A DNA stretch of 64,000 bases, from contig JBMOMR010000049.1 of the NCBI GenBank assembly GCA_049324715.1, forward strand, positions 8,026-72,025, read 5' to 3'. The stretch comes from Chloroflexota bacterium. GTDB taxonomy: Bacteria > Chloroflexota > Anaerolineae > Anaerolineales > Villigracilaceae. The position numbers and the translations under genes were made by a program. A model generated the notes under the pieces. It worked only from the letters and a program-made list of their open reading frames with translations, ran no database searches and was not told the origin of the DNA. Shown here piece by piece: positions 2,626 through 52,075 of the stretch (the first letter of the stretch is position 1; every line of letters starts with the position of its first letter).

Positions 2626-2669
2626 GCTGTGATTGTAATCGGAAAATCAAATCATCAAAAAGGAACTCC

Positions 2670-3950: not shown

Positions 3951-4033
3951 TATGAAAACGGGACGCGGAGAACGCGGATGGACGCGGATACACGCTGATT
4001 TTTCTTTTTTCTCCGCGTTTTCCGCTTAAATCC

Positions 4034-4936
4034 GTGCCCGTCCGCGTCCATTTTCTTCAAACCATCGTGAAATCCACCCGACGCCAATCCCTCGCCCTGC
4101 TCACCCCCTACCTGCTGGGAGCATTCCTGCTCGTTGCCCTCCCAGCAGGCATTTCCTTCGCGCTGGCATTTCATCGTTACAACGGCATCACCCCGCCCGT
4201 CTTCAACGGTATTCAAAATTTCCAATATCTGCGTCTCGAGCCGCTGGCCTGGGTGGCCATCATCAACTCCCTGCTCTACATCGTGCAGGCCGTCCCGCTT
4301 CGCATTCTCGCCGCGCTCGGGCTGGCTCTCCTCCTCAACCGTCCGCGCAAAGGAATCGGCGTCTATCGCGCCGCGGCCTACCTCCCCACCGTCATCCCCG
4401 ACGCCGCCTACGCCCTCACCTGGACGTGGATTCTCAACCCCATTTACGGGCCGCTCAACCTCGTCCTTGGCGCGCTCGGCCTGTCCACTCCCGCCTGGCT
4501 CGCGGATCAGGATTGGGCGTTGCGTGGACTCGTCCTGATGTCCCTGTTTCAGGTCGGCGAGGGATTCGTCATCCTGCTGGCGGGCCTCCGTCACATCCCG
4601 CGCGAATACTACGACGCCTCCCGCGTCGACGGCGCGAGCCGCGTCCAGCAATTTTTCCGAATCACCCTGCCCCTGCTCAGTCCGTGGCTCATCCTGCTCA
4701 GCATCCGCGACATTGCCCTCTCCTTCCAAAACACCTTCACCCCCGCCTACCTGATGACGCGCGGCGGTCCCTACTACGCCACTTTCTTCGCCCCGCTGAT
4801 GATCTACGAAGAGGCCCTCGACAACTTCCGCTTCGGGATTGGCTCGGCCATGATGCTGATCATCTTTGCCGTGACTTTGATCCTCTCCCTGCTGGCCTAT
4901 TTCGTGTTCGAGGAATCGGGATTGGATGCAGACTAA
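4034..4936 (+). CDS. Carbohydrate ABC transporter permease (MalF/UgpA-like)
   Basis: Six predicted TM helices; EAA-like loop GLRHIPREYYDASRVDGAS. Confidence 0.8.
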   Translation: MPVRVHFLQTIVKSTRRQSLALLTPYLLGAFLLVALPAGISFALAFHRYNGITPPVFNGIQNFQYLRLEPLAWVAIINSLLYIVQAVPLRILAALGLALLLNRPRKGIGVYRAAAYLPTVIPDAAYALTWTWILNPIYGPLNLVLGALGLSTPAWLADQDWALRGLVLMSLFQVGEGFVILLAGLRHIPREYYDASRVDGASRVQQFFRITLPLLSPWLILLSIRDIALSFQNTFTPAYLMTRGGPYYATFFAPLMIYEEALDNFRFGIGSAMMLIIFAVTLILSLLAYFVFEESGLDAD

Positions 4937-5744
4937 AACCCCCGCCTCCTTCCTGACCCGCCACCTGCTTCCGTTTCTATTGACGGGACTCTTCCTCCTG
5001 CCCCTCGTCTGGATGTTCTCCGCCTCCCTACGCGTCGCGGGGATGCCTCCCAGCCCCACCTTCGAACTGATTCCCCACCCGTGGACATTCGCCAACTACG
5101 CGCACATCTTCGACATCCTGCCCTTCGGACGCTACCTGCTCAACTCCCTCTTCGTCGCGCTGACGGGTGTCCTGCTCACCCTGCTGACGGCTTCGTGGGC
5201 TGGCTTCGGGATGTCGCAACTCGGTCCGCGTGCCCGCTTGCGCCTGCTGGTGCTGTCCATCATCCTGCTGATGATCCCTGTCACCGCGTTGTGGCTGGCG
5301 CGTTTTGTCTTCTTCGCCTGGCTGGGAATCAGCAACTCGCACTTCGCATTGATCGCCCCCGCGCTGATGGGATCGAGTCCGCTCTTCATCCTGCTCTTCT
5401 ACTGGAACTTTCGCCGCGTGGACCGCGCCGTCTTTGAGTCCGCGCAAATGGACGGGGCCAATCTGCTGAAAATCTGGTGGCACATCGCCCTGCCGCTGGC
5501 GCGTCCCGCGTTGATGGCGGTCGGGATGCTGGCCTTCTTCTTCTATTGGAACGACTTCATCAATCCCCTGCTCTATCTCCGCTCGCAGACGCTCTACACC
5601 CTGCCCGTCGGCCTGCTCCAACTCCAGGAAATGGACAAAACCAACTGGCCGCTCCTCATGGCCGCCTCCGTTGTGATGACCGTCCCCGCGCTGGCGGTGT
5701 TTACTGCTTTGCAACGTACCTTGCTGTGGTGGGAGATGGAATGA
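4926..5744 (+). CDS. Carbohydrate ABC transporter permease (MalG/UgpE-like)
   Basis: TM permease with ESAQMDGAN EAA motif; overlaps the upstream permease by 11 nt. Confidence 0.8.
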   Translation: MQTKTPASFLTRHLLPFLLTGLFLLPLVWMFSASLRVAGMPPSPTFELIPHPWTFANYAHIFDILPFGRYLLNSLFVALTGVLLTLLTASWAGFGMSQLGPRARLRLLVLSIILLMIPVTALWLARFVFFAWLGISNSHFALIAPALMGSSPLFILLFYWNFRRVDRAVFESAQMDGANLLKIWWHIALPLARPALMAVGMLAFFFYWNDFINPLLYLRSQTLYTLPVGLLQLQEMDKTNWPLLMAASVVMTVPALAVFTALQRTLLWWEME

Positions 5745-5753
5745 TATGTTTGC

Positions 5754-5810
5754 TTGACTTCTCTCTCTAAAAGATGTACAATTTGTATAATTTGTACGTC
5801 TTGTACATCA
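5754..5810 (+). promoter_or_regulatory. Sigma70-like promoter TTGACT-N17-TACAAT with three TGTACA palindromic operator repeats upstream of the yefM-relE pair
   Basis: TTGACT at 5754-5759 and TACAAT at 5777-5782; TGTACA at 5775, 5793 and 5802; SD AAGGAGA at 5812-5818. Confidence 0.55.
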
Positions 5811-5822
5811 TAAGGAGACAAA

Positions 5823-6098
5823 ATGCCTACTTTAACAATTCAAAGCGGCGAAGCGCGCGCCAAATTCCGTGATTTATTGGATAACGTATTGGCTGGTAAA
5901 GGCGACGTGATCATCGAACGCAACGGCAAAAGCGTCGCAGTTGTGATTCCAGCGGTGGACTACGAGCAAATCCGCGCAGAATTGGATGAAATGCGCGCCG
6001 TGCGGGAAGCCGCGGCGGCCTACGAAGAATGGAAGAGCGACCCATCCGTTGCCCGTGCATGGGAGGATGTGGATGCAGAGTTGGGAAAAACAGGATGA
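5823..6098 (+). CDS. Type II antitoxin, Phd/YefM family
   Basis: 91 aa with Phd/YefM-like N-terminus; the stop overlaps the downstream toxin start (ATGA). Confidence 0.8.
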   Translation: MPTLTIQSGEARAKFRDLLDNVLAGKGDVIIERNGKSVAVVIPAVDYEQIRAELDEMRAVREAAAAYEEWKSDPSVARAWEDVDAELGKTG

Positions 6099-6367
6099 CC
6101 GAGGCGCGCTGGCAGGTCATCATCCACCGCAAGGCGGAAAAAATATTGAAGCGGCTGGATGGTGACATACTGGAACGCATCCGCCGCGCCATCCGTGGCT
6201 TGGCCAGCGAACCTCGCCCCATGGGCTATAAAAAACTAAGCGGCTATGAAAATCTCTATCGCCTGCGCGTCGGAGATTGGCGAATCATCTACGCCATCGA
6301 GGATGATAAATTGATCGTGCTGGTGCTTGAGATTTCCACACGCGGCGGCGCTTATCGCGACTTTTAA
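6095..6367 (+). CDS. Type II toxin, RelE/ParE family mRNA interferase
   Basis: About 90 aa, MTEARWQVIIHRKAEKILKRL...YRLRVGDWRIIYAIEDDKLIVLVLEISTR is a RelE/StbE fold signature. The ATG lies inside the listed longer ORF 6029..6367. Confidence 0.8.
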   Translation: MTEARWQVIIHRKAEKILKRLDGDILERIRRAIRGLASEPRPMGYKKLSGYENLYRLRVGDWRIIYAIEDDKLIVLVLEISTRGGAYRDF

Positions 6368-6484
6368 TGGCTGTCGTTCCCGCGCTCAAAAATAAGGCTC
6401 ATTGGGAATTTTCGTGACGCGCCCCACTTATAGGGGCGAACCCGTGTGTCCGCACTATAATTTCAAAATAGCCATCCACTGGAG

Positions 6485-7426: not shown

Positions 7427-7451
7427 GAAGAGCGTTGATTTGACCCGATAG

Positions 7452-7964
7452 GTGTGGGATGATGGGAAGATGAAGCGGTTGCTGGTGGGAGTATTTGTAA
7501 TATTGGTTCTTCTGACGGTTACTGTAACAAGAATGGTAAAAATTAACGGGAAGGTGATATGGGTGAGTGCTTTCCCCGATAGAGGGTGGGTTATAAATGA
7601 GGAGGCGAGGGATATATTAGCAGAATTGGCGGGAGAGAGCGGTAATGAGGGGTGGGTGATCGTGTATTTGCCTGTGGCGTACAAAGAAACCAAGGTAGGC
7701 TACGGGCGGGGGGATGACCCGCCTTTGTACTATGCCGAGTGGAGCAGGTGGAGGCAGATCCCTGTTTTGCGAATTTATGTCAACTGGGGGCTGTGGCGGG
7801 AATATAGTGAGAGCAAACGGGATCAGGGACTGGCGGTAATAATTACAAAAGAGTTGCAGGAATTTTGGCAGGCAGGAGAAGTGGGGAAAACGGTGGAGAG
7901 GAAGGCGCTAAGCGGAGAGATCATGCCATGGGGACTGTGGGCGTGGGGGAGGGGAGATGAGTAG
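7452..7964 (+). CDS. Hypothetical membrane-anchored protein
   Basis: N-terminal TM helix; Trp/Tyr-rich; same island and strand as neighbours, with an 8-nt overlap onto the next gene. Confidence 0.45.
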   Translation: MWDDGKMKRLLVGVFVILVLLTVTVTRMVKINGKVIWVSAFPDRGWVINEEARDILAELAGESGNEGWVIVYLPVAYKETKVGYGRGDDPPLYYAEWSRWRQIPVLRIYVNWGLWREYSESKRDQGLAVIITKELQEFWQAGEVGKTVERKALSGEIMPWGLWAWGRGDE

Positions 7965-8265
7965 ACGTTGGCTACTGGTAGTTGCGATATTGATTGTGGG
8001 CATGTGGATGGGAGCAAGGGTGGTGCGGGCGGCGTGTACGGGAGAGGTAAAGTGTGCGTTTGATGATGATTTTGGGGCATGTGACTTTACTTCTGACCAG
8101 TATTATGTGCGGGCCTGTAATGACAGTTGTGGGAGTGGGACGTGTGACCCGCCAGAGTGCGAGATTAGTACCACGTGTGATACGGTGGGGGGTGGGGGGA
8201 CACTGCTGTGTGCGGATGCGACGCAGCCGACGTGTAGTCTGGGGGCGTGCAGCGGCAGAGAGTGA
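7957..8265 (+). CDS. Small secreted cysteine-rich protein
   Basis: Signal peptide followed by 11 Cys in roughly 75 mature residues, with Gly runs; ATGA-type overlap with the upstream gene. Confidence 0.45.
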   Translation: MSRRWLLVVAILIVGMWMGARVVRAACTGEVKCAFDDDFGACDFTSDQYYVRACNDSCGSGTCDPPECEISTTCDTVGGGGTLLCADATQPTCSLGACSGRE

Positions 8266-8280
8266 GGCTATAATTCAATC

Positions 8281-8700
8281 ATGGACACTTGCTTCGTCTG
8301 CCGCAAACACAATGGACTTGAACCCGCCCCTCCTGGCGGCTACATCTACGAGGACGCACACTGGATGGTTTGCCACGCGCCCACCAAAATGGGTCCACTG
8401 GGGACGCTGTTCATCGAGTCACGGCGGCACTTTCTCACCTACGCCGAAATGACGGACGAGGAGGCAGCGTCCCTCGGCGGCGTGTTGAAAAAGACCTATG
8501 CCGCGCTGATCCTTCACTCGCAAGCCGAACGCATCTACCAACTATCCACGATGGAGGGCGCGCCACACTTCCACTGCTGGATCGTCCCGCGCCGCAAGGA
8601 GGTCACCGAGCGCGGACTGAAATTCCTCACCCGCGACGATTCCTGCGATGACGCGGAGGCCGCGTCACTGGCGGAGAAAATCCGCGAAGCGATGAAGTAA
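8281..8700 (+). CDS. HIT-family (histidine triad) hydrolase
   Basis: HFHCWIVPR histidine-triad motif; N-terminal CxxC. Confidence 0.7.
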   Translation: MDTCFVCRKHNGLEPAPPGGYIYEDAHWMVCHAPTKMGPLGTLFIESRRHFLTYAEMTDEEAASLGGVLKKTYAALILHSQAERIYQLSTMEGAPHFHCWIVPRRKEVTERGLKFLTRDDSCDDAEAASLAEKIREAMK

Positions 8701-8732
8701 GGCGGAATGGCATTCCGCCCCACAAATTTACC

Positions 8733-9014
8733 ATGCTCGGACAACTCACCATTCACCTTCATCTTCCTGCCTGTTCCTCGCTCAAAGAAAAGCGCAGACG
8801 GCTCAAGCCGCTCATTGCGCGTTTACACAAGGAATTCAACGTCTCGGTGGCGGAGATGGATTTGCAAGACAAGTGGACGGAGGCGATCCTTGCCTGTGCG
8901 CTGGTCAACTCCGACGCGGTTGTGGTTCGCCAATCCCTGCAAAATGTGGCAAAATGGGTGGAATCCCATTGGACAGATGGGGATGTGATCGACCAAAAAA
9001 TCGAAATCGATTGA
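8733..9014 (+). CDS. DUF503 (YlxP-like) protein
   Basis: LTIHLHLPACSSLKEKRRRLKPLIARL...FNVSVAEMDLQDKW matches the YlxP family pattern. Confidence 0.7.
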   Translation: MLGQLTIHLHLPACSSLKEKRRRLKPLIARLHKEFNVSVAEMDLQDKWTEAILACALVNSDAVVVRQSLQNVAKWVESHWTDGDVIDQKIEID

Positions 9015-9031
9015 ACGTTTAACGTTCAACG

Positions 9032-19326: not shown

Positions 19327-20331
19327 ATGAAGAACGAAACCACGAAGACTCAACGCATCATCATGACCATTGTGGCGGTTGTCGGCGGCTTGTACCTGAT
19401 GCTGTTGGCGCCCACCCAGGCCATGCAAACCCTGAAGATCGCGCTCGACCAGGTGCTCCTGCGCCTTGTGCCGCACGACGCGGATTTCTACCCCGCTGTA
19501 CCCGTTCTCTCGACCACGTTCTCAGCCTGGATCATCGCCTTCGTCTTTTCTGGCGCCATGCTGTTGGTGGTGGCGAAGAAACTCTACGACGGAGTGAAGT
19601 GGGCACGCGCCGCCGCGCTGGGACTGTTCGCCATCCCCTCGGTCGCGGGGATGACCATGATGATTCCCTGGTTCGTGCTGGTTCTGGCCGAATATCCTGA
19701 AAAGGGCGTCCCGCCGCATACCATCAACGGAATGCCACCCGCCATGCCGATCCTGTTCGTCAACCTGCTGTTCTACTTCATCATCCTGCTTGCGGATACT
19801 GACACGCTCAAGAACAAGGCGCTGAAACTTATCCCCTACACCGCGTTGGGAATCGTCTCTGGCATGGTCTTCATGAACGCACAGCACGGTGTGCGCTACT
19901 TCATCCACATCCCTGGCGAGTTCGTCACTGGTGCGGATGGTCTGATTGCCGCCAACCCCACCCCGCCTCCGTTCACGTCCGCGCTGGCGCATTACATCAC
20001 CAATCTCGATCATCTGGATTGGCAAACCTTTGAATTTGTTTCAGAAAAAGCCGTGTACAGCCCGCAAACGCTGGCGCTCCTGCTCGGCGGCTTTCTGCTC
20101 TACATTGCGTCCGTGCTGTTGATCGTCTCCATCCCACTGATGGCGATGAAGAACAAAGCGGGCTGGTACATCGCCACCGCCACCACACTGGCGACCGTCG
20201 TTGTCAGTTTCCAGGGCTTCATCGTGCGGCATTCCACCGAATGGCTGCAGGGCGGGATGCTATCCGCTGTGCTGTTGGCGATCCTGCTCATCCCCGCCTT
20301 CAAGCAATTCCTGATCGAAAAAGGCGAATAA
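19327..20331 (+). CDS. Polytopic membrane protein, paralog family A (A1)
   Basis: About 8 TM helices; the shared block AKKLYDGVKWARAAALGLFAIPSVAGMTMMIPW is also present in the 21224 and 22233 genes. Confidence 0.65.
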   Translation: MKNETTKTQRIIMTIVAVVGGLYLMLLAPTQAMQTLKIALDQVLLRLVPHDADFYPAVPVLSTTFSAWIIAFVFSGAMLLVVAKKLYDGVKWARAAALGLFAIPSVAGMTMMIPWFVLVLAEYPEKGVPPHTINGMPPAMPILFVNLLFYFIILLADTDTLKNKALKLIPYTALGIVSGMVFMNAQHGVRYFIHIPGEFVTGADGLIAANPTPPPFTSALAHYITNLDHLDWQTFEFVSEKAVYSPQTLALLLGGFLLYIASVLLIVSIPLMAMKNKAGWYIATATTLATVVVSFQGFIVRHSTEWLQGGMLSAVLLAILLIPAFKQFLIEKGE

Positions 20332-29457: not shown

Positions 29458-30404
29458 AACGGACACTCTTCATCCTGGCCCTGCTTGCGCTGACTCTCGC
29501 CGCCTGCGGAAACGCTCCAAGCGTTGGTTCCATCACGCCTCCTTTCATAGACCCTGGAATTGACCCCGAATCCTGGGCCACTGTCCCTGCTGGTGAATTC
29601 CCCTACGGCCAGCACGACCACATGACGATGGTGGATTACGATTACGAGATCATGGTCACCGACGTGACCAACGAACAGTATGCCCGCTTCCTGAACGCGG
29701 CCCTGACCGACGGGACCGTCAAAGTCGGCGAAGTGGAAGTGGAGGCAGGCGAACAGATCTGGCACGAGACGGGCGTGCATGGCGCGTACCCTGGCGATCC
29801 CTTCGACGGCTACGAGCACGAAGAGGAGATCAGGGCTGGCGACAAACTCTACGCCCCCACCCAGGTGGAGGGCCTGCGCCTGACCTTTGACGGCGCGCAA
29901 TTTACCGCCATCTACGAGTATGGCAACCACCCAATGACAATGGTCACTTGGTTCGGCGCGAACGCCTACTGCCAATATTACGGTTGGCGTTTGCCGACCG
30001 AGATCGAATGGGAAAAAGCCGCGCGCGGCACCGAACTGGTGAACGGTCACGGCCTGCCCTACCCCTGGGGCGAGCACATCGAACGCAACAATGCCAACTA
30101 CTACTCGTCCTTCGACCTGTTCGAGAAGATGTTCGGAAAACTCGGCAATACCACGCCCGTCGGATTCTTCAATGGCAAGACCTACGACGGCTACACAACC
30201 CTCGACTCCGCCTCGCCCTATGGTTTGTACGACATGGCGGGCAACGTCTGGCAATGGACAGGCGACGACTATCCCGACCAGCACTACCGTATGTTGCGCG
30301 GCGGTAGTTTCTACACCTACGAAGTGGACCTGCGCGTCTGGAAGAACAACTCGGCTGGGCCGCAGTATTACAGCCCCCAAGTCGGCTTCCGTTGCGTGAG
30401 GTAA
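29454..30404 (+). CDS. FGE/SUMF1-family lipoprotein, non-catalytic variant (NirV-like)
   Basis: Lipobox LAACG. FGE motifs are present: GWRLPTEIEWEKAARG, LYDMAGNVWQW, RGGSF…GFRCV. There is no Cys pair between RGGS and GFRC, so it is not predicted to be a catalytic FGE. Confidence 0.7.
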   Translation: MKRTLFILALLALTLAACGNAPSVGSITPPFIDPGIDPESWATVPAGEFPYGQHDHMTMVDYDYEIMVTDVTNEQYARFLNAALTDGTVKVGEVEVEAGEQIWHETGVHGAYPGDPFDGYEHEEEIRAGDKLYAPTQVEGLRLTFDGAQFTAIYEYGNHPMTMVTWFGANAYCQYYGWRLPTEIEWEKAARGTELVNGHGLPYPWGEHIERNNANYYSSFDLFEKMFGKLGNTTPVGFFNGKTYDGYTTLDSASPYGLYDMAGNVWQWTGDDYPDQHYRMLRGGSFYTYEVDLRVWKNNSAGPQYYSPQVGFRCVR

Positions 30405-33286: not shown

Positions 33287-33715
33287 TCATCCCCATAGTT
33301 CCTTCGTTAACTCGATTATCTGATTCTGCTGTTCCGCGCTCAAACCAACAAACGGGGAATTTGCATCAGTCGTATCGCGGTTCTCCACGATCAACACTTT
33401 TGCATCCTCGCTGAATGTGTGCGAGTGCCAGGCGCCGCGCTTCACGTTGTAGAGTTTGTGCGGCTCCATATCCACCGCGTGGACGGCGGTCACGCTTTCG
33501 TCCCCCTCCCCCAGGAATAGGATACATCGTCCCGCCAGTAGGACGAAGACCTCGTCCGTCTCGATGTGTTTTTGCATCCAATTAATCTTTTCGGGCACGA
33601 GGTCGGGCGTGTAATTCATCAGCGCCACGCGCCAACTCTGATAGTCAATGAGCGGCTTGTAGTCGGGGCCGTTGTGTTCGCGGATTTCGAGGAGGGATTC
33701 GGGGAGAGTGGTCAT
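33287..33715 (-). CDS. Cupin domain protein
   Basis: VFVLLAGRCILFLGEGDESVTAVHAVDMEPHKLYNVKRGAWHSHTF is a cupin_2 pattern; the listed longer ORF 33287..34144 over-extends across the ferredoxin gene. Confidence 0.6.
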   Translation of the reverse strand: MTTLPESLLEIREHNGPDYKPLIDYQSWRVALMNYTPDLVPEKINWMQKHIETDEVFVLLAGRCILFLGEGDESVTAVHAVDMEPHKLYNVKRGAWHSHTFSEDAKVLIVENRDTTDANSPFVGLSAEQQNQIIELTKELWG

Positions 33716-33766
33716 GCCATGGATTCTACTCCAGTCTGCGGACGGCTTTCGAGTATACTCGGCACA

Positions 33767-33982
33767 ATGCCTCGTCTGATCCGCATCCGCATCAACCTGG
33801 ACCTCTGTCAGGCCTGCCAGCAATGTTCGGCGCTGAAGATCTGTAAGCCGCGCGCCATCATGCAGCCTGACCCGGGGGAATCTCCGTACCTGGATATCGA
33901 GCGTTGTCGCGATTGCGGCGTCTGCATGGAAGCCTGTCCGTTTCGGGCGATCGAGTTGACGGGCACGTTCCCCCAAGCCTGA
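33767..33982 (+). CDS. 2x[4Fe-4S] ferredoxin
   Basis: CQACQQCSALKIC and CRDCGVCMEACP motifs; 71 aa. Confidence 0.65.
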   Translation: MPRLIRIRINLDLCQACQQCSALKICKPRAIMQPDPGESPYLDIERCRDCGVCMEACPFRAIELTGTFPQA

Positions 33983-34182
33983 TAAATCGAATAAGGGAAA
34001 ATCTCCCCCACAGCACGCGGGGGCGAGAAAACGCGTCCATTGCCGCGCCCGCCTCAAGTCAAGAAAGATGCGGATTTTTGCATCCGCATCAATTTTATTT
34101 AATTTAGGATTGACAATTTCAATATTATAAGTATAATTATTCAAAGATAATCAATTTTGTTTTTCGTTTTCTTGAGGCCGAA

Positions 34183-35775: not shown

Positions 35776-36056
35776 GCTACTTTCTCCTAACAGAAACAGA
35801 ATTCGCCCGGTCGTCCGTTTCGCTTGCAACGGGCGAACGCGGGCACGTTCGCTAATTTATCACTTCTAATTGGACATGTCAAGCCCAAATTTTATTTTCT
35901 TCCGAATCGTCGCAAAACGCGAGACAAGATGGACCCACGGCGGTGACCACCTCACCCGCGGGACCCCACGCTGGATGACCATCCGCAACTCCTCTGGACA
36001 TAAAATATTTTTTTCAAGGACAAGATTCCCCTCCAAATTAGCAATGCTGAATTAGA

Positions 36057-37343
36057 CTACACGATACATACTACTCTAAAACCAACATTATTTAATGCTT
36101 CCTCATCGGGAAGAAAAGTATATCGGCTAGAAACACGCGCACCGTACTGATAGAAACTCCACGCGCCCCCGCGTAATGCAAGCCCTGTGCATGATCTGTC
36201 ATAATAATTAGCCTGCCATTCCCAAACATTGCCAGCCATATCCATCACCCCATGTGTGCTAATTCCACGTAGGTAGGCGTTCACCGGAGTGGTACCGCCA
36301 ATATTGTAATGGACATTTGCCCGTCGCGCGATTTCCCTATCGTTCCTCGTCGCTATGTGAGCCTTATCCCATGGATAACGAGACATTGGATTTTCTCCTC
36401 CCGCTGCGGCTGACCACTCAATTTCCAAAGGAAGGCGGATTTGTTTAGGGTGAAAATCTGGATTTGCAAGTTCTTCAAGACTGTCCTTCCAGTTACGAAG
36501 TAGCCATTTGCAATAGGCATTTGCCTCATACCATGAAATAGCAACTACAGGATGATCGTGTTTAACAATGCCAAGTTCAGCATCGTGCCAATAGGTAGGG
36601 AAATATCCTGAAATTTTCGATTTACTTTTTAACCACTTCCAACCTTCATTTTCCCACTGACCAATTTGGATACAGTTTTCGTTGAATTTAGGAAACTCAG
36701 TCCATATCGAATCGTTTACAGAAAAATCAAGCGAAGATAAAAAACGTTCGTACTGTACATTAGTGATGGGATATTTGCTAATATGGAATGTATAAGGAAC
36801 TTGACCAATGGGTATAGAAACGAATCTATGCAGATCAAAATCATCGCTATCCTTAAAATCCAATGCCAGTTCCGCAGGTGTCTTTCGATCCAAATCGCGG
36901 GCGCATTTCTCTAGCGCTTGCAATAATTGTGGATAGGCATACAAGGAAGAATCGCCTATGGAATGGCTAGCAAACCTAATATGATGTAAATGGTTAAGAC
37001 AAAATGGAACATCACAATTGTCAAACAAATAAGGCACAATAAAAATTCTACCGTCAGGTTTGTTTTTTGAAATATCTAAAGCCTCCTTAATTTCTCTTTG
37101 AACATAGCCATCTTTAGTTGTAGACTCTTTCGAGAGACAAATAATAATATTGTCCACAGTACTCATGACTTTAAGAATCTTCATATCCCATTTTTCCCCC
37201 GGTAGCAGTTGCTCTTCAGCTATCCAAGGGTCGATCCAAGCCTCAGTTTTTAAGCGATCGTATAACTTACGCGCTTTAGATTCATCTTCCTGAGCATGGC
37301 AGATAAACACACTAAGTTTTCGATGCGTTGAGGATATAGTCAT
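36057..37343 (-). CDS. TIR domain protein fused to a C-terminal non-catalytic FGE/SUMF1-like domain (low-GC island)
   Basis: TIR motifs are SVFICHAQEDESKARKLY, YVQREIKEAL and RIFIVPYLFDNCDVP. FGE motifs are ISWYEANAYCKWL, MDMAGNVWEW, RGGAWSFYQY…GFRVVC. No Cys pair follows RGGAW. Local GC is about 40%. Confidence 0.75.
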   Translation of the reverse strand: MTISSTHRKLSVFICHAQEDESKARKLYDRLKTEAWIDPWIAEEQLLPGEKWDMKILKVMSTVDNIIICLSKESTTKDGYVQREIKEALDISKNKPDGRIFIVPYLFDNCDVPFCLNHLHHIRFASHSIGDSSLYAYPQLLQALEKCARDLDRKTPAELALDFKDSDDFDLHRFVSIPIGQVPYTFHISKYPITNVQYERFLSSLDFSVNDSIWTEFPKFNENCIQIGQWENEGWKWLKSKSKISGYFPTYWHDAELGIVKHDHPVVAISWYEANAYCKWLLRNWKDSLEELANPDFHPKQIRLPLEIEWSAAAGGENPMSRYPWDKAHIATRNDREIARRANVHYNIGGTTPVNAYLRGISTHGVMDMAGNVWEWQANYYDRSCTGLALRGGAWSFYQYGARVSSRYTFLPDEEALNNVGFRVVCIV

Positions 37344-37420
37344 AGAAACCAGCCTAATATTTTATGCGAACAAGTTCAATAGCCAATTAACTAATCCTAC
37401 CTGAAATTGTGGGTAGTACT

Positions 37421-38101
37421 TTATTGTCTCAAATCGGCTTTGAATTTCTTGATCACAAAAGCATACCGAGAAGCCAAATGAAACCAAGGGGGAGACCACT
37501 TAACGCATGGAACGCTATTTTTGATAGCCTGCCGTAAACCAATTGGGTTGTCAAACCAATGGAGGAAAAGTAGGGATCGTCCAACTTCTATTGCCGCGTG
37601 TGCATCCGAACCAACTGTTCCTGCCACATTATACCTTTTTGCAAACCATTTTGCATGATTATTAAACCACGGCAACATACACCGTGAGTTGAACACCTCA
37701 ATTGCATCCACCAACGGGACAATTTCCTCCAAATCGAACAGTGCCCAGCCCCCTTTCCGCAACCTGTCGAACGGATGCGACACGCTGATAAACGCCCCCT
37801 GCTCCCGCAACCGACGGATCGTCTCCTGCGGCGAAAGCCCCGCGGGAACCTCCTCCGACACGAACGCGGCCAGAATCTCCCCCCGCGTCGTCATAACCTC
37901 CTCCCCGACGATGATCCGCTCTGGGTCAATTCTCTGTGCTTCGAGTGCCCCCGCAATGGAATTGTGATCCGTCACAACGACGCGGTCAATCCCCTTCCGC
38001 CGCGCCGCCGCGACCAGGTCCGCGGGACGGAGGAGGGAGTCCGCTGAGGCGGAGGTGTGGCAGTGGAATTCTACACGAAATTGGGATGATATTTGTGGCA
38101 T
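37421..38101 (-). CDS. PHP-domain metal-dependent phosphoesterase
   Basis: HCHTSASADSL is the PHP motif I; additional His and Asp residues (DHNS, SHPF, GSDAHA). Confidence 0.7.
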   Translation of the reverse strand: MPQISSQFRVEFHCHTSASADSLLRPADLVAAARRKGIDRVVVTDHNSIAGALEAQRIDPERIIVGEEVMTTRGEILAAFVSEEVPAGLSPQETIRRLREQGAFISVSHPFDRLRKGGWALFDLEEIVPLVDAIEVFNSRCMLPWFNNHAKWFAKRYNVAGTVGSDAHAAIEVGRSLLFLHWFDNPIGLRQAIKNSVPCVKWSPPWFHLASRYAFVIKKFKADLRQ

Positions 38102-38197
38102 TCGTTACTTGACAAAGAAGTTTTTGCCAGTATATACTGACAGTACGAAATACGCAAAGACGACTTTGGTTTAGCCGGTGGCGGAGAGCATCGCTGA

Positions 38198-40042
38198 ATG
38201 AACGTGATTGCGTTTCTCAATAACATGTTCGTCCTAGCCAACGCAATGTTGGATGTTGCGTTTCTTTGGGGTGGAATAATTCTGCTTCTTGCAGTTTATC
38301 CCGTTTACTTTTTCTCGTCTAATCTCAAAAAATACACAAAGGAACATCACGGTCCAGAACTGCTGATGCAAACCGTTATCCTTGTCCTGATCGTCGCGGT
38401 AATTGCATTAGTTTGGGCGCTTCCAGATATCATCTGGGCATTCAAAATGCGGGTAAGCGAACCATCGACTACCTCAATCACACTAAATGTAGTTACCGAT
38501 ACAATGAGGATTGATAGGCAGATCGGTTGGAACGAAAAGCCATCCATCGTGCTAAATATGTCTAATGAAGCATTGACAATCGATGAGCCCGTCACTTGGG
38601 GACAATTTGCATGGACTTTTTCATCGATTCGCTGGGGAGTGCTCCTCCTCGCATTTTTTGCCGCCGCATATCTATTGGGACGCGAACACGGAAAAAACCG
38701 ATGGCTGATTTCTGCTGTTGGACATGTTGCGGTGATTGCGATTGGCTGGATTGTCAATTTTTGGATGGGTATTATCTTCATTTCCATACCAATCATTGTC
38801 ATGTACTATGGCGCACTCTATGATCTTGCAAATGTTGTCCTTCCCGCATCAAATCCCGAAGACCGCGCGGAGAAGAAGAAAAAGTTCTTTGTGCTGGCAT
38901 CCTACGCCTGGGGAACCCAGGCGCCCCTCACAGTTGTGGATGACCACGCCTGGAAAAAATATGAACCGCGCATCTCCGGTGATATTACATGGGAATTTTC
39001 TGAATTCCCTATTCCATTCCTGAATAAACTTCAGCGCCCCGGGCTGATCTGGACAAAGTCCCACCAGGTAGCCGCAATTTCTGGCGGAACGAACTTCAGG
39101 CGCATAGATGGTCCCGGCGTGATATTTCCCAGCAAGTTGGAACGTCTCGACCAGGTTTTTGATTTACGGATACAACTCCGCACCAGGGAAATTGAAGTTG
39201 TTAGCAAGGATGGCATCCGCTTTATCGCGCGCTACTTTACCGCGTTTCGCCTCGATAAAGATGAGTGGAACAAGGAACTCTACGACAAAATTCGTCCACT
39301 CAACCCGCTTCTGCGCGGTGCAGACAAGTTGAGTTACACCAAGGGAAGTTTCCCCTTCTCCCACGCGCGTATTCAAGCGACCTTGAGCACTACCAGTACA
39401 AAAGTCAGTGAAGGGACACCGCTCATCCTGTGGGATCAGTGGGTGATGAACGTGGTCGAAGACCAGACGCGCAAGATCATCTCGCAAAAGAATCTGGACG
39501 AGATGTGGCGTCCTACAAATGATTATAAATTTGCCAATGCAATGGATGTTATCGCAATCGAACTCAAGGCAAATTCTGAATTGGCATTGCGCGCGGCTGG
39601 CATTTTGCTGGTTGCCGCTCGAGTGGTGAATTTCAAATTCCTGTTCACAGAAGAACAGGGCGACGAAATTGCCAAGCAGCAAATCCACACATGGGGCTCC
39701 GAATGGGAAAGAAAACGTCACGGCATCCTTGCAGAAGCAGAAGCGGAGGCAGAACGCGCACAACAGGAGGCGCGCGCCTACGCTGAGTCATTGCTTTTGA
39801 ATTCCATCGCGGAAGGCCTGCAAAAAACACACGAGATCAACCCAGAGTTACCTCGCCATGTTATAGCGATGCGTTTCTTGAGTTCACTTCAAGATTACGT
39901 TCACAAAGAAATGTCAGAAGAAGAGGAAGGCGAGGAAGAGAAAAACAACAAGACCAGCGAAAAAGAAAAGAGAGAAATGTTGAGCAGGTATTTCAAGGAT
40001 TGGCAGGACACCTTCTTCTCGGGCCGCGGCACGGAGAAATGA
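38198..40042 (+). CDS. Membrane protein with an N-terminal polytopic region and a C-terminal SPFH/band-7-like domain plus coiled coil
   Basis: About 6 TM helices; the SPFH core is VFDLRIQLRTREIEVVSKDGIRFIARYFTAFRL; C-terminal AEAEAEAERAQQEARAYAE; low GC. Confidence 0.6.
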   Translation: MNVIAFLNNMFVLANAMLDVAFLWGGIILLLAVYPVYFFSSNLKKYTKEHHGPELLMQTVILVLIVAVIALVWALPDIIWAFKMRVSEPSTTSITLNVVTDTMRIDRQIGWNEKPSIVLNMSNEALTIDEPVTWGQFAWTFSSIRWGVLLLAFFAAAYLLGREHGKNRWLISAVGHVAVIAIGWIVNFWMGIIFISIPIIVMYYGALYDLANVVLPASNPEDRAEKKKKFFVLASYAWGTQAPLTVVDDHAWKKYEPRISGDITWEFSEFPIPFLNKLQRPGLIWTKSHQVAAISGGTNFRRIDGPGVIFPSKLERLDQVFDLRIQLRTREIEVVSKDGIRFIARYFTAFRLDKDEWNKELYDKIRPLNPLLRGADKLSYTKGSFPFSHARIQATLSTTSTKVSEGTPLILWDQWVMNVVEDQTRKIISQKNLDEMWRPTNDYKFANAMDVIAIELKANSELALRAAGILLVAARVVNFKFLFTEEQGDEIAKQQIHTWGSEWERKRHGILAEAEAEAERAQQEARAYAESLLLNSIAEGLQKTHEINPELPRHVIAMRFLSSLQDYVHKEMSEEEEGEEEKNNKTSEKEKREMLSRYFKDWQDTFFSGRGTEK

Positions 40043-40043
40043 C

Positions 40044-41435
40044 ATGAAACTCCCTGACCCAGACCTCGTCAACTGGCAAACCGCCTACAGCCGCGATGAT
40101 GCCTATCGGGATTTTGGCAAGTATGCCCGATATTACAAGTATCTGTTATTTGCGAGCATTGGCCTTATTGCGGTTTTTATGGCAATCCAATTCTCACCAG
40201 CCGTTGACCAATGGGTTTCCCATTATTTGGGTAAATCGGATGCTTTGACAAAGGCGTCCATCCTGATGACCTTCCTGCTGGCCTTGTTGGCGGGGTACAT
40301 TGCCCTCTCGCTTATTCGGTCCAGGGCATTTCATTTTGCGACCTTGTTCTTTAGTGATTTTCATCAACCGCCTGAAGGCATCGAGCCAGCAAAAATCATC
40401 AAATACCGTCTCCACGGCAAATTCAAACTACCATCGCCGTTCACGATGATTTTTCAATTCAAATACATCATGGCAAAAGAAGGAGAGTTTATCAAAGCCG
40501 ATCAATGGCCTGCATGGATGGCGCGCACGCTTGGAGGTCCATTACTACTGATCGTATTTGACGGATGCGCCTTATATCTCGAACGCGGCAACCGTTTCTC
40601 GCGCGTTGTCGGCCCCGGGGATAAAATCCCCTTCTTGGAATGGTATGAAACTATCAAGTACGTGGTGGACCTGCGGCCAAGAGTCCGCGAGGATAAATTC
40701 GATGTTTGGACCAAGGATGGGATCAAGATAGAAATCAAGGCGCGCGTCGAGGGTCGCATCGGAGACCCCAAGAAGACGGACCCCGAAGGAAAGTTGATAT
40801 ATCCCTACGACCCAATGGCTGTACAAAAAGCCATTGAACGCTATGCCCTGCGCTGGTCTACCTGCCCGGAGGGAGAACCCGTTGAATTCACGTGGATTGA
40901 CGCAGTTTGGGGGCAGGTAACGGGGATAGTTCCAAGTTATATCGGTAGCAGAACATTAGATGACCTTCTACTAGAAAACCGAAAAAGTGGACAAATGCTC
41001 TCTCCAATTGCTGTTCAAGAGATGTTCGATAAACTAAATAATACTACTCAGGGCTTTGGAGTTTATGTAACAGATTTTCAAATCGTAGAAATAAAGATTC
41101 CACACGAAGTAGAGGAACTTCAAAAGGAATATTGGAAAGCAGAAAGACAAAGCGTGTCTACTATCTTGGGCGGACAGACCAAGGCACTCTATATTAGGTC
41201 TAGAGAAAAAGCCCGTGCAGATGCTCAACGCGACTTGATACTATCTATTGCTGATGGGCTTGAAAAGAATGAAAACGAAAATGAAAATGAACGCTTTACA
41301 GCACCCTTGCTTCTAACTTTCTCAAAAATCCTAGACAATAGCCTTAGCGACCCTCTTATGCGAGCGTACTTAGCAACAGCGACCCTTGAAACTCTTGAGA
41401 AACTACAGAGTATGCTTTCAAAGACATCTCAATAG
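40044..41435 (+). CDS. SPFH/band-7 (stomatin/HflK-like) membrane protein
   Basis: Two N-terminal TM helices; the SPFH core is LERGNRFSRVVGPGDKIPFLEWYETIKYVVDLRPRVREDKFDVWTKDGIKIEIKARVEGRIGD; overlaps the upstream gene (TGAcATG). Confidence 0.7.
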   Translation: MKLPDPDLVNWQTAYSRDDAYRDFGKYARYYKYLLFASIGLIAVFMAIQFSPAVDQWVSHYLGKSDALTKASILMTFLLALLAGYIALSLIRSRAFHFATLFFSDFHQPPEGIEPAKIIKYRLHGKFKLPSPFTMIFQFKYIMAKEGEFIKADQWPAWMARTLGGPLLLIVFDGCALYLERGNRFSRVVGPGDKIPFLEWYETIKYVVDLRPRVREDKFDVWTKDGIKIEIKARVEGRIGDPKKTDPEGKLIYPYDPMAVQKAIERYALRWSTCPEGEPVEFTWIDAVWGQVTGIVPSYIGSRTLDDLLLENRKSGQMLSPIAVQEMFDKLNNTTQGFGVYVTDFQIVEIKIPHEVEELQKEYWKAERQSVSTILGGQTKALYIRSREKARADAQRDLILSIADGLEKNENENENERFTAPLLLTFSKILDNSLSDPLMRAYLATATLETLEKLQSMLSKTSQ

Positions 41436-41444
41436 GACAATCTA

Positions 41445-42488
41445 ATGGTTCTTAACCTTCAATTAATAACTAGTTGGCTTGAAATAGAAGATGGCAGGAT
41501 TGTTGATCTAAAAAACAGCATCATGGCCACATTTGGTAACCCTCAAAAAATGCGTCCATTGATTGATCGACAGTGCGAAAACCGAGAGCAAACCCATTGC
41601 CTCTCGTGTGAAAGCGAAAGTGGGTGCTTGATTTTAAATGGAATTGTTTATCTAGAGTTAGGAGAAATTGAAAACGCAATAAGAGAGATTGAAAGTGCCA
41701 ACCGGCATTTCCGTAATAAAAATGAGACTCTAAATCAAATTATCGGTCTCGTATTGCTGGGACAAGCTTATGAGGATAAGAGAAAGGACCATTTAGCTCT
41801 CCGTGAATACGAACAAGCACAAAATGTTCTTGGAAACTATCGTCGAATCCATGCAAACGATTACTTAACAAAAGCTGAAGCCCTAAAAGATATCCTAGAC
41901 GGAAAAATCTCTGAACTTTCAGAGTCAAACTTTTCTGGCAATAGTTCACCAGCAGGTTCTGTAAATACAAATCCCAATCAAGCTATCAACGCCGGAAAAG
42001 ATTTTCTCGCGTTATTTTCCATTCCAATTTACGGAACCGTCGAAGCGGGCCTAGATGGCACATTGCACATAGATCATTTCAACATTTTCACGATTATCAA
42101 CCAAGTCGAGCTTAAAAAACAACTTTATGATGTCTATAATGTGCATGGCACCGCAGAGGCAGATCGGCAAATAACCATTACAACAAAGAGAGAACATGGC
42201 TGGCTGCGCGTTCATGGTCTAAGCATGAACGACTGGGATTTGCCTTTTAGCGAAAACGATTATGTTTTATTCTACAAATCCCAGACTGCGTCACATCATG
42301 ATTTTGTTATTGCATCAAACACCGACCCGTCAGGCGAAATAGATCTAATGGTCAAAAGATTTGACGCAGAAAAAAATCAATTGGTTTCCAAGTCGAAGGA
42401 TAAAAGCAAGCCGTATGGACCCATTCCAGTTGATGAGAGACACCAAATCGTAGGCATTGTAATCGCCATTGCCAAACCTGCCAAATAA
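41445..42488 (+). CDS. LexA-like S24 peptidase domain protein with a novel Cys4/helical N-terminal domain and no HTH
   Basis: The C-terminal LRVHGLSMNDWDLPFSENDYVLF…DLMVKRF matches the LexA/CI Ser-Lys dyad region. The N-terminal cluster is C-x7-C-x2-C-x5-C. Confidence 0.65.
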   Translation: MVLNLQLITSWLEIEDGRIVDLKNSIMATFGNPQKMRPLIDRQCENREQTHCLSCESESGCLILNGIVYLELGEIENAIREIESANRHFRNKNETLNQIIGLVLLGQAYEDKRKDHLALREYEQAQNVLGNYRRIHANDYLTKAEALKDILDGKISELSESNFSGNSSPAGSVNTNPNQAINAGKDFLALFSIPIYGTVEAGLDGTLHIDHFNIFTIINQVELKKQLYDVYNVHGTAEADRQITITTKREHGWLRVHGLSMNDWDLPFSENDYVLFYKSQTASHHDFVIASNTDPSGEIDLMVKRFDAEKNQLVSKSKDKSKPYGPIPVDERHQIVGIVIAIAKPAK

Positions 42489-42532
42489 CAACCAGACAAA
42501 AACAACGGGAATTTACGGGTAAAATAAAAGTT

Positions 42533-50314: not shown

Positions 50315-52075
50315 CTACTTCTCCAGCTCGCAAACGCTATCTTTTTCGTTCCAGACACAACCATTGGATTGATTGTTGATGCACTGCACCTCAGTGGTGT
50401 GCTGTCCACAATTATAAAGCGGAGCGCATTGCAGCATGTCTACAGAAACGAAAGTACATCCCGTGGACGCGCTGGCCTGCTCGACGCGCGGGGCGCACGC
50501 ACCCGTGGACGGGTCATACGCGAATCCAGGTTGGCAATCGGGATAAAGGCCGATGGCCGGCGCCTGACAGCATTGGGAGGCATCATTGAACGAGAATCCC
50601 GCCGGGCAACCCACATAGCAGGTGCTGGCAAGTGACGGGTCGTTGATGCCGTAGAGATTGCAGTTGGCCTGTCCATTGGCAGGGACACAGCCGCCGAATA
50701 ACGCGTCGAAGTATTGCCCGGAGGGGCACTGATTGTCGAGGCCGATGGTGGGGCGGCAAACCTGTCCCGTGGAATCAAGCGCGTAGCCCGGCGGACAGCC
50801 CTCAGGTCCGCTTTGAGGCGTGATCGGGGTGTAGGCGCACTGTCGGGTGGCGGGGTCATACGCGTAGCCCGGGTCACACACCGCGTTCCCCAACGGGACG
50901 GTGGCGGGCTGTTGGTCGTCACAAGAGGAGTTGCAAACTTCCAGCGTGCCGCTCGTGGCATCGGGACCCGTACAGGTGACCTGCAACATGCCGCCCACGA
51001 TGGCATCGGTGCATTGATAGCCTGCCGTGCGGATGCGATAAGTGGTGCCAAGCGGAAGGATGATCGTATTGGACGGGACTTTGCCCTTGCAGGATGGTCC
51101 CACCCTCTGCGCCACAGGAACGGTGCAAAGACTGGACGGCGTGGGCGCGGTCAACTCGCCGGGCAGGTAGGGACTGGCCTGGCAATACGCCGGGAAATTG
51201 ATGGGTTGCTGGACGACACAACGGAAACCCAGGTCGCGGCTGGTGTAATTCGGGTCGGCGGGACGGCGGATGGAGGAGGCGATCTGCGTGGCGTCGCTCT
51301 CGAAGCTACTGCCGCGGATCACGCGATAGACGCCGCTTTCCGCACCGGGCGGATCCTGAATGGGCGAGGTGGCGTAGTAGGAGGCGTCGTACCAATCGGC
51401 CACCCACTCGAAGGCGTTGCCAGCCATATCGAGCGCAAGGTAGGGACTGGCGCTTTCAGGGTAGGAAACCACACTCTTGGTGGAGCCTCCGCAACCCGCG
51501 TAGTTCAACAGGTCACAGGAGGGCTGCTCGTTGCCCCAGGGATAGGTATTTCCGCCGGGACCGCGGGCGGCTTTCTCCCATTCGGCCTCGGTCGGCAGGC
51601 GTCCGCCAGCCCAGTTGCAGTAGGTGTTGGCCTGTTCCCAGTTCACGCCCACAACGGGGTGGTCGGCGTAAGTCGGGTTGGTGTACACCGGTCCGCCGGG
51701 GGTGGAGGCGGGCGGCGCGCAAACACCAACGCCCACACACAACGCGTACATGCGATTGGTGATCTTGGTGCGCGAAATCCAATAAGCGGAGAGACTGACC
51801 GAGTGGCTGGGGTTGTCGGCCCCGTTGCCGCCCATGGTGAACTGCCCCGCTGGGACATATGCCAGCGACCCGCCGTCCATCCAGGACATGACCGTCCCCG
51901 CGTTCGGCCCGCTGAGCTGGATCGGAACCAGCGTCGGGACGGCGGTCTCGGTGACGACGGAAATCAACGTGGGGGTGGGCGGTTCGGAGGTCGCAGGGGT
52001 CGCGGTCGGCGCACAGGCGGTGAGAAGGATCGCCAGTGCGAGGCCCAGTCCAAACAATGCTTGCAGTTTTTTCAT
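50315..52075 (-). CDS. Lipoprotein with an N-terminal non-catalytic FGE/SUMF1-like domain and a C-terminal Cys-rich repeat region
   Basis: Lipobox LTAC; FGE motifs GGRLPTEAEWEKAARG, LDMAGNAFEW, IRGSSF…GFRCVV with no Cys pair; about 7 repeats of C-P-x-G-[YF]-x-[YF]-D-x(n)-C. Confidence 0.7.
   Translation of the reverse strand: MKKLQALFGLGLALAILLTACAPTATPATSEPPTPTLISVVTETAVPTLVPIQLSGPNAGTVMSWMDGGSLAYVPAGQFTMGGNGADNPSHSVSLSAYWISRTKITNRMYALCVGVGVCAPPASTPGGPVYTNPTYADHPVVGVNWEQANTYCNWAGGRLPTEAEWEKAARGPGGNTYPWGNEQPSCDLLNYAGCGGSTKSVVSYPESASPYLALDMAGNAFEWVADWYDASYYATSPIQDPPGAESGVYRVIRGSSFESDATQIASSIRRPADPNYTSRDLGFRCVVQQPINFPAYCQASPYLPGELTAPTPSSLCTVPVAQRVGPSCKGKVPSNTIILPLGTTYRIRTAGYQCTDAIVGGMLQVTCTGPDATSGTLEVCNSSCDDQQPATVPLGNAVCDPGYAYDPATRQCAYTPITPQSGPEGCPPGYALDSTGQVCRPTIGLDNQCPSGQYFDALFGGCVPANGQANCNLYGINDPSLASTCYVGCPAGFSFNDASQCCQAPAIGLYPDCQPGFAYDPSTGACAPRVEQASASTGCTFVSVDMLQCAPLYNCGQHTTEVQCINNQSNGCVWNEKDSVCELEK

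Follow-up and report, generated by a model that had tools for sequence, protein, structure and literature searches.

The question raised by the gene at 36057..37343 (minus strand) of the 64-kb stretch of Chloroflexota DNA analysed here (the window) is what a protein can do that joins a TIR domain to a domain named in databases for an enzyme. The identical protein in NCBI is called 'SUMF1/EgtB/PvdO family nonheme iron enzyme [Chloroflexota bacterium]', a label that is misleading for hundreds of such proteins. An earlier reading made from the letters alone (the sequence-only reading) took the gene to encode a minimal sensor-effector. Our analysis points to a non-catalytic binding domain, diversified in relatives by diversity-generating retroelements (DGRs) and fixed in the window copy. 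Hypermutation of the FGE-like domain in relatives, and its absence here, is the key context that the sequence-only reading missed.

The open reading frame is complete (ATG start, TAG stop) and encodes 428 amino acids. Pfam matches TIR_2 (PF13676) over residues 12–127 (E=2e-18, 67.5 bits against a cut-off of 28) and FGE-sulfatase (PF03781) over residues 185–425 (E=1.3e-34, 120.4 bits against a cut-off of 23.3). The TIR domain, with a flavodoxin-like beta-alpha core, is placed at residues 10–127 (36963..37316, minus strand), and the FGE/SUMF1-like domain, which has a C-type-lectin (CLec) fold, at residues 174–428 (36060..36824, minus strand), the latter from Pfam, AlphaFold2, Foldseek and a PDB sequence match. 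They are joined by a helical linker at residues 128–173 (36825..36962, minus strand) that varies in sequence and length across the family (entropy profile) and for which AlphaFold2 predicts helices at 133–150, 156–164 and 167–172 with low to medium pLDDT. The AlphaFold2 model was built on a 41-sequence family alignment and has a mean pLDDT of 79.5, with values of ∼85–91 at residues 11–70, 54–75 toward the C-terminal part of the TIR domain, where strands and helices are predicted over residues 10–117, and ∼87–97 across most of the C-terminal domain. The sequence-only reading had proposed the fusion, without an NTPase, and would have given it up had profile searches failed to find TIR or FGE; both matches lie above their thresholds, the AlphaFold2 and Foldseek folds agree with them, and Pfam finds no NTPase domain in the polypeptide, nor is one adjacent in the window. 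The protein is probably cytoplasmic, because neither a signal peptide nor a transmembrane segment is evident by eye in its N-terminus, MTISSTHRKLSVFICHAQED.

When the N-terminal half was compared with the PDB by Foldseek, the matches were TIR-STING (9lmq, 7un8), SPARTA TIR-APAZ (8u72, 8isy, 8i87), MyD88 and TRR-2/Hydra TIR. A PDB search with the TIR region as a single sequence gave nothing meaningful; a family profile was required, and it matched 7uxr, AbTir (7uwg, 8g83), PdTIR (3h16), SPARTA TIR-APAZ and Cat1 (9mud), with 8qlo and 8ifk also among the profile matches. Box 1 (VFICHAQED) and box 2 (LLPGE, the BB-loop) are evident and conserved. In the 41-sequence alignment the columns of F13, A17, D20, G49, C69, S71, K77 and G79 are invariant, and Y80 and E84 are each at least 90% conserved. 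We assign E84 (codon at 37092..37094, minus strand) as the Glu of a [W/Y]xxxE motif (Y80-V-Q-R-E84), because in the profile alignment the family 'GYVQKE' pairs with '-WTEYE' of the bacterial TIR structure 7uxr, with E84 on the last Glu. Its position is one that we take to be catalytic from what is established for SARM1- and AbTir-type TIRs. The earlier suggestion that the Glu in YVQREIKEAL lies at the NADase catalytic position is thus borne out by conservation and alignment, and the domain is by appearance catalytically competent and probably NAD-cleaving.

A TIR domain of this kind could also act by signalling, producing a cyclic ADP-ribose (cADPR) isomer or a similar messenger that activates a separately encoded effector, like ThsB in Thoeris, rather than by depleting NAD+. 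The family TIR profile does match producers of cADPR isomers such as AbTir, there is a weak similarity to ThsB_TIR (16.8 bits, below the cut-off of 21.2), and TIR_2-only genes lie directly upstream of TIR-FGE homologs at two loci. Such a messenger would call for an effector, and no conserved partner (SIR2/SLOG/Macro or other) was found in the ∼12 contexts examined; the window holds no ThsA-like neighbour (SIR2 or transmembrane with SLOG/Macro) and no PADLOC Thoeris match. PADLOC-DB v2 gave no whole-protein or system-level defence match for TIR-FGE, its TIR segment matching only the TIR parts of Argonaute-associated, SAVED-TIR and RT-TIR models. We consider the signalling alternative rather improbable. 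The two upstream TIR_2-only genes, L083 9370–9999 (209 aa) and L085 2409–3404 (331 aa), are on the same strand as the homologs and stand in otherwise unrelated contexts; such neighbours suggest possible hetero-oligomeric TIR pairs.

The C-terminal half is matched by Foldseek in the PDB to FGE (5ssx, 4.6e-9), CalU17, EgtB, OvsA, ToxD, PvdO, TvpA (2y3c) and PorK. With the family profile, its top PDB sequence match is SUMF2/pFGE (1y4j, 1.4e-22), which has no Cys pair at the aligned positions. After RGGAW the window protein reads SFYQYG and then ARV, with no Cys, where human FGE has the Cys-containing 'CHRSYC'. No Cys stands at the FGE catalytic positions in the 21 of 41 family rows displayed, and no Cys column there is conserved over all 41. 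Because the Cys pair (CxxxxC, Cu-binding) is absent, the FGE-like domain is not a formylglycine-generating enzyme, as the sequence-only reading had concluded from the same SFYQYG.

The NCBI name implies a wider claim, that the C-terminal domain is an enzyme (FGE, an EgtB/OvoA-type sulfoxide synthase or PvdO-like) to which the TIR domain is accessory. Generic PF03781 membership and weak NCBIfam similarity to GldK, SenA, EgtB, OvoA and PvdO are what it can draw on, but the scores against these equivalogs are only 15–70 bits for cut-offs of 350–500. For the EgtB, OvoA and SenA synthases the values are 38–43 bits against 360–420, and Pfam reports no DinB-like N-terminal domain, the N-terminus being TIR. 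Moreover, variability across the family peaks at the positions that correspond to the FGE active site, and the closest PDB sequence match itself lacks the Cys pair. With the Cys pair absent and the NCBIfam scores below cut-off, the enzymatic reading was rejected and seems to us scarcely credible. The C-terminal domain is instead, from its sequence features, a predicted non-catalytic module for binding or sensing, the domain that papers on conflict systems and DGRs call 'FGS' or 'CLec'.

Family searches agree with this assignment. All of the 120 best matches in a collection of 5.8 billion proteins have the TIR_2 plus FGE-sulfatase architecture at ∼410–460 aa, and those with a named source come from Chloroflexota, Anaerolineales or Anaerolineaceae. 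When 1.84 billion cluster representatives were searched exhaustively with HMMER, 520 proteins matched at E<=1e-30, many of which share the C-terminal module only (query residues ∼160–427, 45–55% identity). The N-terminal partners of the shared module are NACHT, NACHT plus SMODS, Metallophos plus NACHT, Ser/Thr kinase, TPR and two TIR domains, and this range of partners, together with a binding face that is hypervariable across the family, fits the earlier view of the FGE-like part as a binding or sensor module. The survey of TIR-FGS architectures that the sequence-only reading called for shows the arrangement to be not at all unusual: TIR-FGE is a large family in uncultured Chloroflexota/Anaerolineae, and the window protein is an ordinary member of the catalogued TIR-CLec/FGS class linked to DGRs. 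In IMG/VR viral contigs and PLSDB plasmids there were only distant FGE-domain matches, none over the TIR region, and no full-length relative; carriage of TIR-FGE by phages or plasmids was rejected on this basis. The FGS domain has been described computationally as an intracellular lectin-like invader sensor of bacterial conflict systems (PMC8195603, PMC7159879), and a preprint on bacterial NACHT proteins names it an 'antigen receptor-type' domain (10.1101/2022.07.19.500537). TIR-like N-termini are reported on CLec/FGE-type DGR variable proteins of cyanobacteria (PMC7517822), and CHAT+TIR+CLec and TIR-STAND-CLec proteins are likewise reported as DGR targets in multicellular bacteria (PMC10907252). 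A literature search joining the TIR domain with FGE-sulfatase returned no match.

Entropy in the family alignment is concentrated at residues 381–387, 396–401, 406, 408–411 and 413–420, and the variable stretches sit between the invariant anchors RGGxW, ARV, R407, P412 and GFRV. The FGE active site lies here, and so do the variable regions of DGR targets with the CLec fold. In the window protein the equivalent stretch comprises residues 396–420, SFYQYGARVSSRYTFLPDEEALNNV (36084..36158, minus strand), between the anchors RGGAW and GFRV, and is the presumed ligand-binding face; a second variable loop, YDRSCTG at residues 381–387 (36183..36203, minus strand; 2.6–3.3 bits of entropy per column), lies directly upstream of RGGAW. 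Within three clusters of at least 90% identity (P0050, P0096 and P0048) the density of variable columns is 0.47–0.54 in the stretch and 0.12–0.28 elsewhere.

The codons of the variable stretch carry the mark of adenine mutagenesis. Three homologs from different assemblies (L083, L084 and L090), 47–50% identical to the query, have in common the nucleotide frame TCG TGG NNC NNC … CCG NNC NNC AGG NNC NNC NNC NTC GGT TTT CGT GTG, for which the expected A-rich template is TCGTGG-(AAC)n...CCG AAC AAC AGG AAC AAC AAC ATC GGTTTTCGTGTG. Third-position C reaches 0.75, 0.50 and 0.62 in their respective variable regions against 0.20–0.25 in the remainder of the gene (Fisher p of 1e-6, 1e-3 and 2e-5). Across 47 unique variable regions of canonical layout, residues that can be encoded by NNC make up 95% at variable positions against a background of 77%. 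One position is restricted to L/H/R/P (CNC from a CAC template), two are restricted to I/F/V/L (NTC from ATC) and one to R/W/G (NGG from AGG), sets that match precisely what adenine mutagenesis of a single codon would yield. The binding face of most family members is, as judged from these codon and residue patterns, a DGR variable region.

A complete DGR cassette with TIR-FGE targets is present at L018, a Bryobacteraceae metagenome-assembled genome (MAG) contig (JBEKMJ010000094.1, 1–6413). It comprises an FGE-domain target gene (245–1906), an RVT_1 reverse transcriptase (RT) gene (2077–3447), an A-rich template repeat (3499–3625) and two tandem TIR_2 plus FGE-sulfatase target genes (3609–5165 and 5247–6413). 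Between the 3' end of the first TIR-FGE gene and the template there are 18 mismatches over 127 positions, of which 14 fall at template adenines; the second gene diverges from the template more than the first. In the contig scan with the family alignment, the matches listed were mostly distant FGE-only loci found through generic peptide patterns, the useful ones being L018 and the loci with templates and RTs. A-rich, AAC-repeat, template-like sequences ending in GGxTTyCGx occur in these distant FGE-domain loci at L014 (∼6360–6480), L017 (∼7440–7560), L024 (∼4130–4250), L030 (∼2230–2340, minus strand), L032 (∼19950–20070) and L035 (∼2990–3110), and a DGR-type RT match lies near each of them except that of L030. 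Together the template-like sequences and the RT matches indicate that DGRs acting on FGE-fold domains are frequent in the fetched Chloroflexota, Nitrospirota and other MAG loci.

The window copy has the layout of the CLec type of DGR target, with a C-terminal CLec/FGE fold and a variable region that ends at the GFR anchor, and the stretch retains the kind of residues (Tyr, Asn, Asp and Ser) typical of DGR variable regions. Its third-position C content is 0.16 in the stretch and 0.16 in the rest of the gene (p=0.6), the common nucleotide frame has drifted or decayed, and eight residues, not seven, lie between P412 and GFR, which indicates an indel. Among its 11 closest homologs, a subgroup 55–63% identical to it, the stretch is 65% conserved, compared with 54% for the TIR domain and 62% for the FGE core, and contains the near-fixed motif YYQYGARVS(R)RYT(Y)LPD(D), invariant or nearly so within the 90% clusters of the members. 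By these sequence criteria, the receptor is frozen in the window copy and its subgroup, with the binding face apparently under purifying selection, and is not a currently variable protein.

No repeat of the gene longer than 19 nt was found in the window (blastn, word size 7), and tblastn with the L018 RT matched nothing there but did match L014, L017, L024, L032 and L035; a local DGR was rejected for the window on these two results. The copy might still be an active target if a DGR elsewhere in the genome diversified it in trans. In cyanobacteria, remote variable proteins are on record (PMC7517822); in this family, members with clear footprints likewise have no RT nearby and, where checked, no template repeat nearby; and the genome search spans 64 kb only. 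An active target, however, would be at odds with the flat third-position C, the decayed frame, the additional residue before GFR and the conservation of the stretch among the 11 subgroup members and within their clusters, and we regard diversification in trans as very unlikely.

Returning to the frozen state, we infer that the subgroup descends from a diversified receptor whose specificity is now fixed. A fuller version of this history would be that the Tyr/Asp/Asn-rich face was explored by a DGR, that the link to the retroelement was then lost, and that the protein was kept across genera as a hard-wired, germline-fixed, single-gene TIR NADase sensor for one ligand, with no NTPase. We hold this to be a serious possibility, if somewhat short of an even chance. 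Were it true, the family would offer a natural example of adaptive-like diversification followed by fixation in bacterial immunity, and a workable model, free of ongoing mutation, for learning what intracellular sensors diversified by DGRs recognise.

As to function, we propose by analogy with other TIR systems that the protein is a single-polypeptide cytoplasmic sensor-effector in which a ligand induces TIR assembly and NAD+ cleavage, a mechanism that we judge modestly probable. The CLec face would bind a specific intracellular ligand, probably invader-derived or multivalent; binding would bring TIR domains together into a composite active site, as in TIR-STING, TIR-SAVED, Cat1 and SPARTA; and the assembled TIR would cleave NAD+, leading to growth arrest or abortive infection. 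Of the minimal sensor-effector in the sequence-only reading, the domains, the Glu at the catalytic position, the non-catalytic FGE part and the missing NTPase all stand, while NADase activity and the coupling of sensor to effector stay putative.

The genomic context bears on whether TIR-FGE acts alone. At each of the four static-subgroup loci (the window, L081, L092 and L093/94) TIR-FGE follows a small PHP phosphoesterase gene on the same strand. In the window this gene (PHP/PHP_C, 226 aa, CehA/McbA-like) lies at 37421–38101 (minus strand), 77 nt from TIR-FGE. The gap has a weak 9/12 promoter-like site at 37386–37359 and no minus-strand terminator, which is uninformative on co-transcription. 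The PHP protein has weak N-terminal similarity to RNase RNM, a 3',5'-bisphosphate phosphatase and the anti-phage protein Ppl. In the same four loci the pair faces a divergent set of three genes, which in the window encode a 614-aa multi-pass membrane protein (38198–40042, plus strand; no Pfam match, homologs faint Band_7; 560–614 aa across the loci), an SPFH/Band-7 protein (40044–41435, plus strand) and a TPR plus Peptidase_S24 (LexA/UmuD-like) protein (41445–42488, plus strand). The block at 38198–42488 is kept in at least 10 related loci, has no PADLOC match to a known defence system and could represent an as yet uncharacterised stress or conflict module at the membrane. The G+C content of TIR-FGE is 0.41 and that of PHP 0.54; the divergent-set genes together with TIR-FGE fall at 0.40–0.48, the flanking housekeeping genes at ∼0.59–0.64, and the region 36000–42500 at 0.44–0.48 against ∼0.56–0.62 across the remaining window. 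At nearly every other locus examined TIR-FGE homologs are likewise lower in G+C than their neighbours, L083 being the exception.

This arrangement could be taken for a multigene system of TIR-FGE, PHP, the membrane protein, SPFH/Band-7 and TPR-S24. The order S24, Band_7, ∼560–614-aa protein, divergent PHP and TIR-FGE recurs in all four static-subgroup loci, PHP and TIR-FGE share a strand across a short gap, the block genes are low in G+C as well, and at L096 and L100 a 235-aa TIR_2-only gene, ∼40% identical to the query TIR plus linker (the matches cover query residues 3–157 and 10–167, so that the linker also occurs in TIR-only paralogs), stands after S24. A metagenome scan with the 614-aa protein, however, found six closer block relatives (L095–L100, 62–72% identity) in which PHP, the 614-aa protein and SPFH are retained, often together with S24, PfkB and IndA, and wherever sequence beyond PHP was available TIR-FGE was absent: in L100 a cold-shock gene (CSD) abuts PHP, and in L097 an EF-Tu gene lies beyond it. 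No TIR gene occurs in the available sequence of L097, L098 and L099. All other family members examined are in unrelated contexts (L086, for instance, is flanked by nucleotidyltransferase and HEPN-type genes). Because PfkB and IndA are syntenic too, the adjacency is best ascribed to shared ancestry, and we think a multigene system distinctly unlikely. Obligate coupling to PHP, SPFH and S24 was rejected in spite of the adjacency in four loci, as metagenome loci carry the block without TIR-FGE. Since the block exists without TIR-FGE and distant members stand in unrelated contexts, TIR-FGE is an accessory insertion of atypical composition that has no obligate partner. The PHP gene is kept beside the SPFH block with or without TIR-FGE. 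At L100 an insertion sequence element (HTH_32/HTH_23 plus DDE_3 transposase, 7900–9029) lies between SPFH and S24, which fits an insertion-hotspot region.

A fixed binding face would also suit a receptor with no role in immunity, a regulatory or developmental sensor (of self or kin, programmed cell death or stress) in filamentous Anaerolineae whose frozen site recognises an endogenous ligand. Conservation of the face across the whole subgroup at 55–63% overall identity, the similar chromosomal position beside PHP and CSD in four loci and the 'regulatory pathway tuning' proposed for cyanobacterial multidomain variable proteins (PMC7517822) would all fit such a role. It accords less well with the presence or absence of TIR-FGE among close relatives of the locus, with its atypically low G+C content, with the occurrence of its module in NACHT, SMODS and caspase-type conflict architectures (PMC8195603), and with a catalytic Glu in the TIR domain that is typical of abortive-infection effectors. 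We consider this alternative unlikely, though deserving of attention.

Several points weigh against an immune sensor-effector that was once diversified and later frozen. Its role in defence is drawn by analogy, the literature search found no experimental paper on any TIR-FGS protein, and the contexts are mostly housekeeping genes, with toxin–antitoxin modules or transposases only occasional. In the AlphaFold2 model, TIR residues 100–130 and the linker are of low confidence. The polarity, DGR target first and frozen later, is inferred from the family distribution and residue composition, and the DGR search of the source genome covers the 64-kb window. The footprint-bearing homologs themselves have no RT within 10 kb, and L083 and L084 have no template repeat in that range (L090 was outside the template-repeat check). 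More generally, the gene calls for homologs with listed contexts include no RVT_1 gene within 10 kb, and no template repeat was found near the close homologs L081–L088 and L001–L005. Because neither an RT nor a template repeat lies nearby where checked, diversification of the footprint-bearing homologs, as read from their footprints, would be in trans.

The proposed sensor-effector can be set beside three groups of characterised or catalogued proteins. It shares with the CLec/FGE variable proteins of DGRs (the Treponema TvpA fold, the cyanobacterial multidomain proteins of PMC7517822 and the Thiohalocapsa and multicellular-bacteria targets with TIR, CHAT or STAND of PMC10907252) the C-terminal fold (TvpA 2y3c by Foldseek and profile match) and the anchor layout RGGxW...ARV..R....P.......GFRV, and its relatives carry the adenine-mutagenesis footprint. 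It differs from them in having neither template repeat nor RT in 64 kb, no codon footprint, an indel and a conserved face. The STAND/NACHT-FGS proteins (PMC7159879, PMC8195603) have the same FGE-like module (P0177, P0184 and P0189 match query residues ∼160–427 at 45–46% identity) and include TIR among their recognised effectors, but they possess a central NTPase switch, whereas the window protein joins TIR to FGS by a ∼45-aa helical linker. TIR-STING, TIR-SAVED, Cat1 (CARF-TIR) and SPARTA TIR-APAZ are closest in TIR fold and share the Glu at the catalytic position and the logic of a TIR combined with one ligand-binding domain; their sensors are for cyclic nucleotides or nucleic acids, whereas the window protein has a lectin-fold domain predicted to bind protein or glycan, and its oligomerisation is a prediction. 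Among relatives of the FGE-like domain, SUMF2 (1y4j) shares the anchors ARV..R...P......GFR and is also without the Cys pair, and PorK shares with the query an insertion between 'AYCxW' and 'RLP'. SUMF2, PorK, GldK, PvdO and the EgtB C-domain are, however, secreted, ER/periplasmic or biosynthetic and have no TIR fusion, in contrast to the apparently cytoplasmic, TIR-fused window protein.

It has been suggested that FGS/CLec domains inside the cell serve bacterial conflict systems as antigen receptors akin to antibodies, and our literature search found no identified ligand for one. The TIR-FGE family would be the simplest wiring of such a receptor, direct to a TIR effector with no NTPase switch, and the frozen subgroup presents a fixed binding site across several uncultured Anaerolineae lineages. 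With its binding site fixed, this subgroup lends itself to ligand pull-downs and NADase assays, and to the question whether clustering by a lectin-fold sensor is enough to activate a TIR domain.

Three other genes of the window may be mentioned. A 285-aa open reading frame at 33287–34144 (minus strand) has no Pfam match at E<=0.01. The other two encode FGE-like proteins, and the sequence-only reading had taken the lack of the Cys pair in all three such proteins of the window to point to binding rather than catalysis. The absence is confirmed in all three, but the inference adds little, because the remaining two proteins are secreted lipoproteins whose contexts are unrelated and because many solved proteins of the same fold are not FGEs (SUMF2, PorK, EgtB, OvsA, PvdO, ToxD and TvpA). 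One, at approximately 29463–30404 (plus strand), is an FGE-sulfatase-domain protein with a lipoprotein signal sequence; the other, at 50315–52075 (minus strand), is a 586-aa FGE-sulfatase-domain lipoprotein with a long Cys-rich C-terminal extension and a faint match to the chitin-binding domain CBM_14. Their lipoprotein signals are …LAACG and …LTACA, and the two genes share a 37-nt stretch at 89% identity (29992–30028 and 51561–51597).

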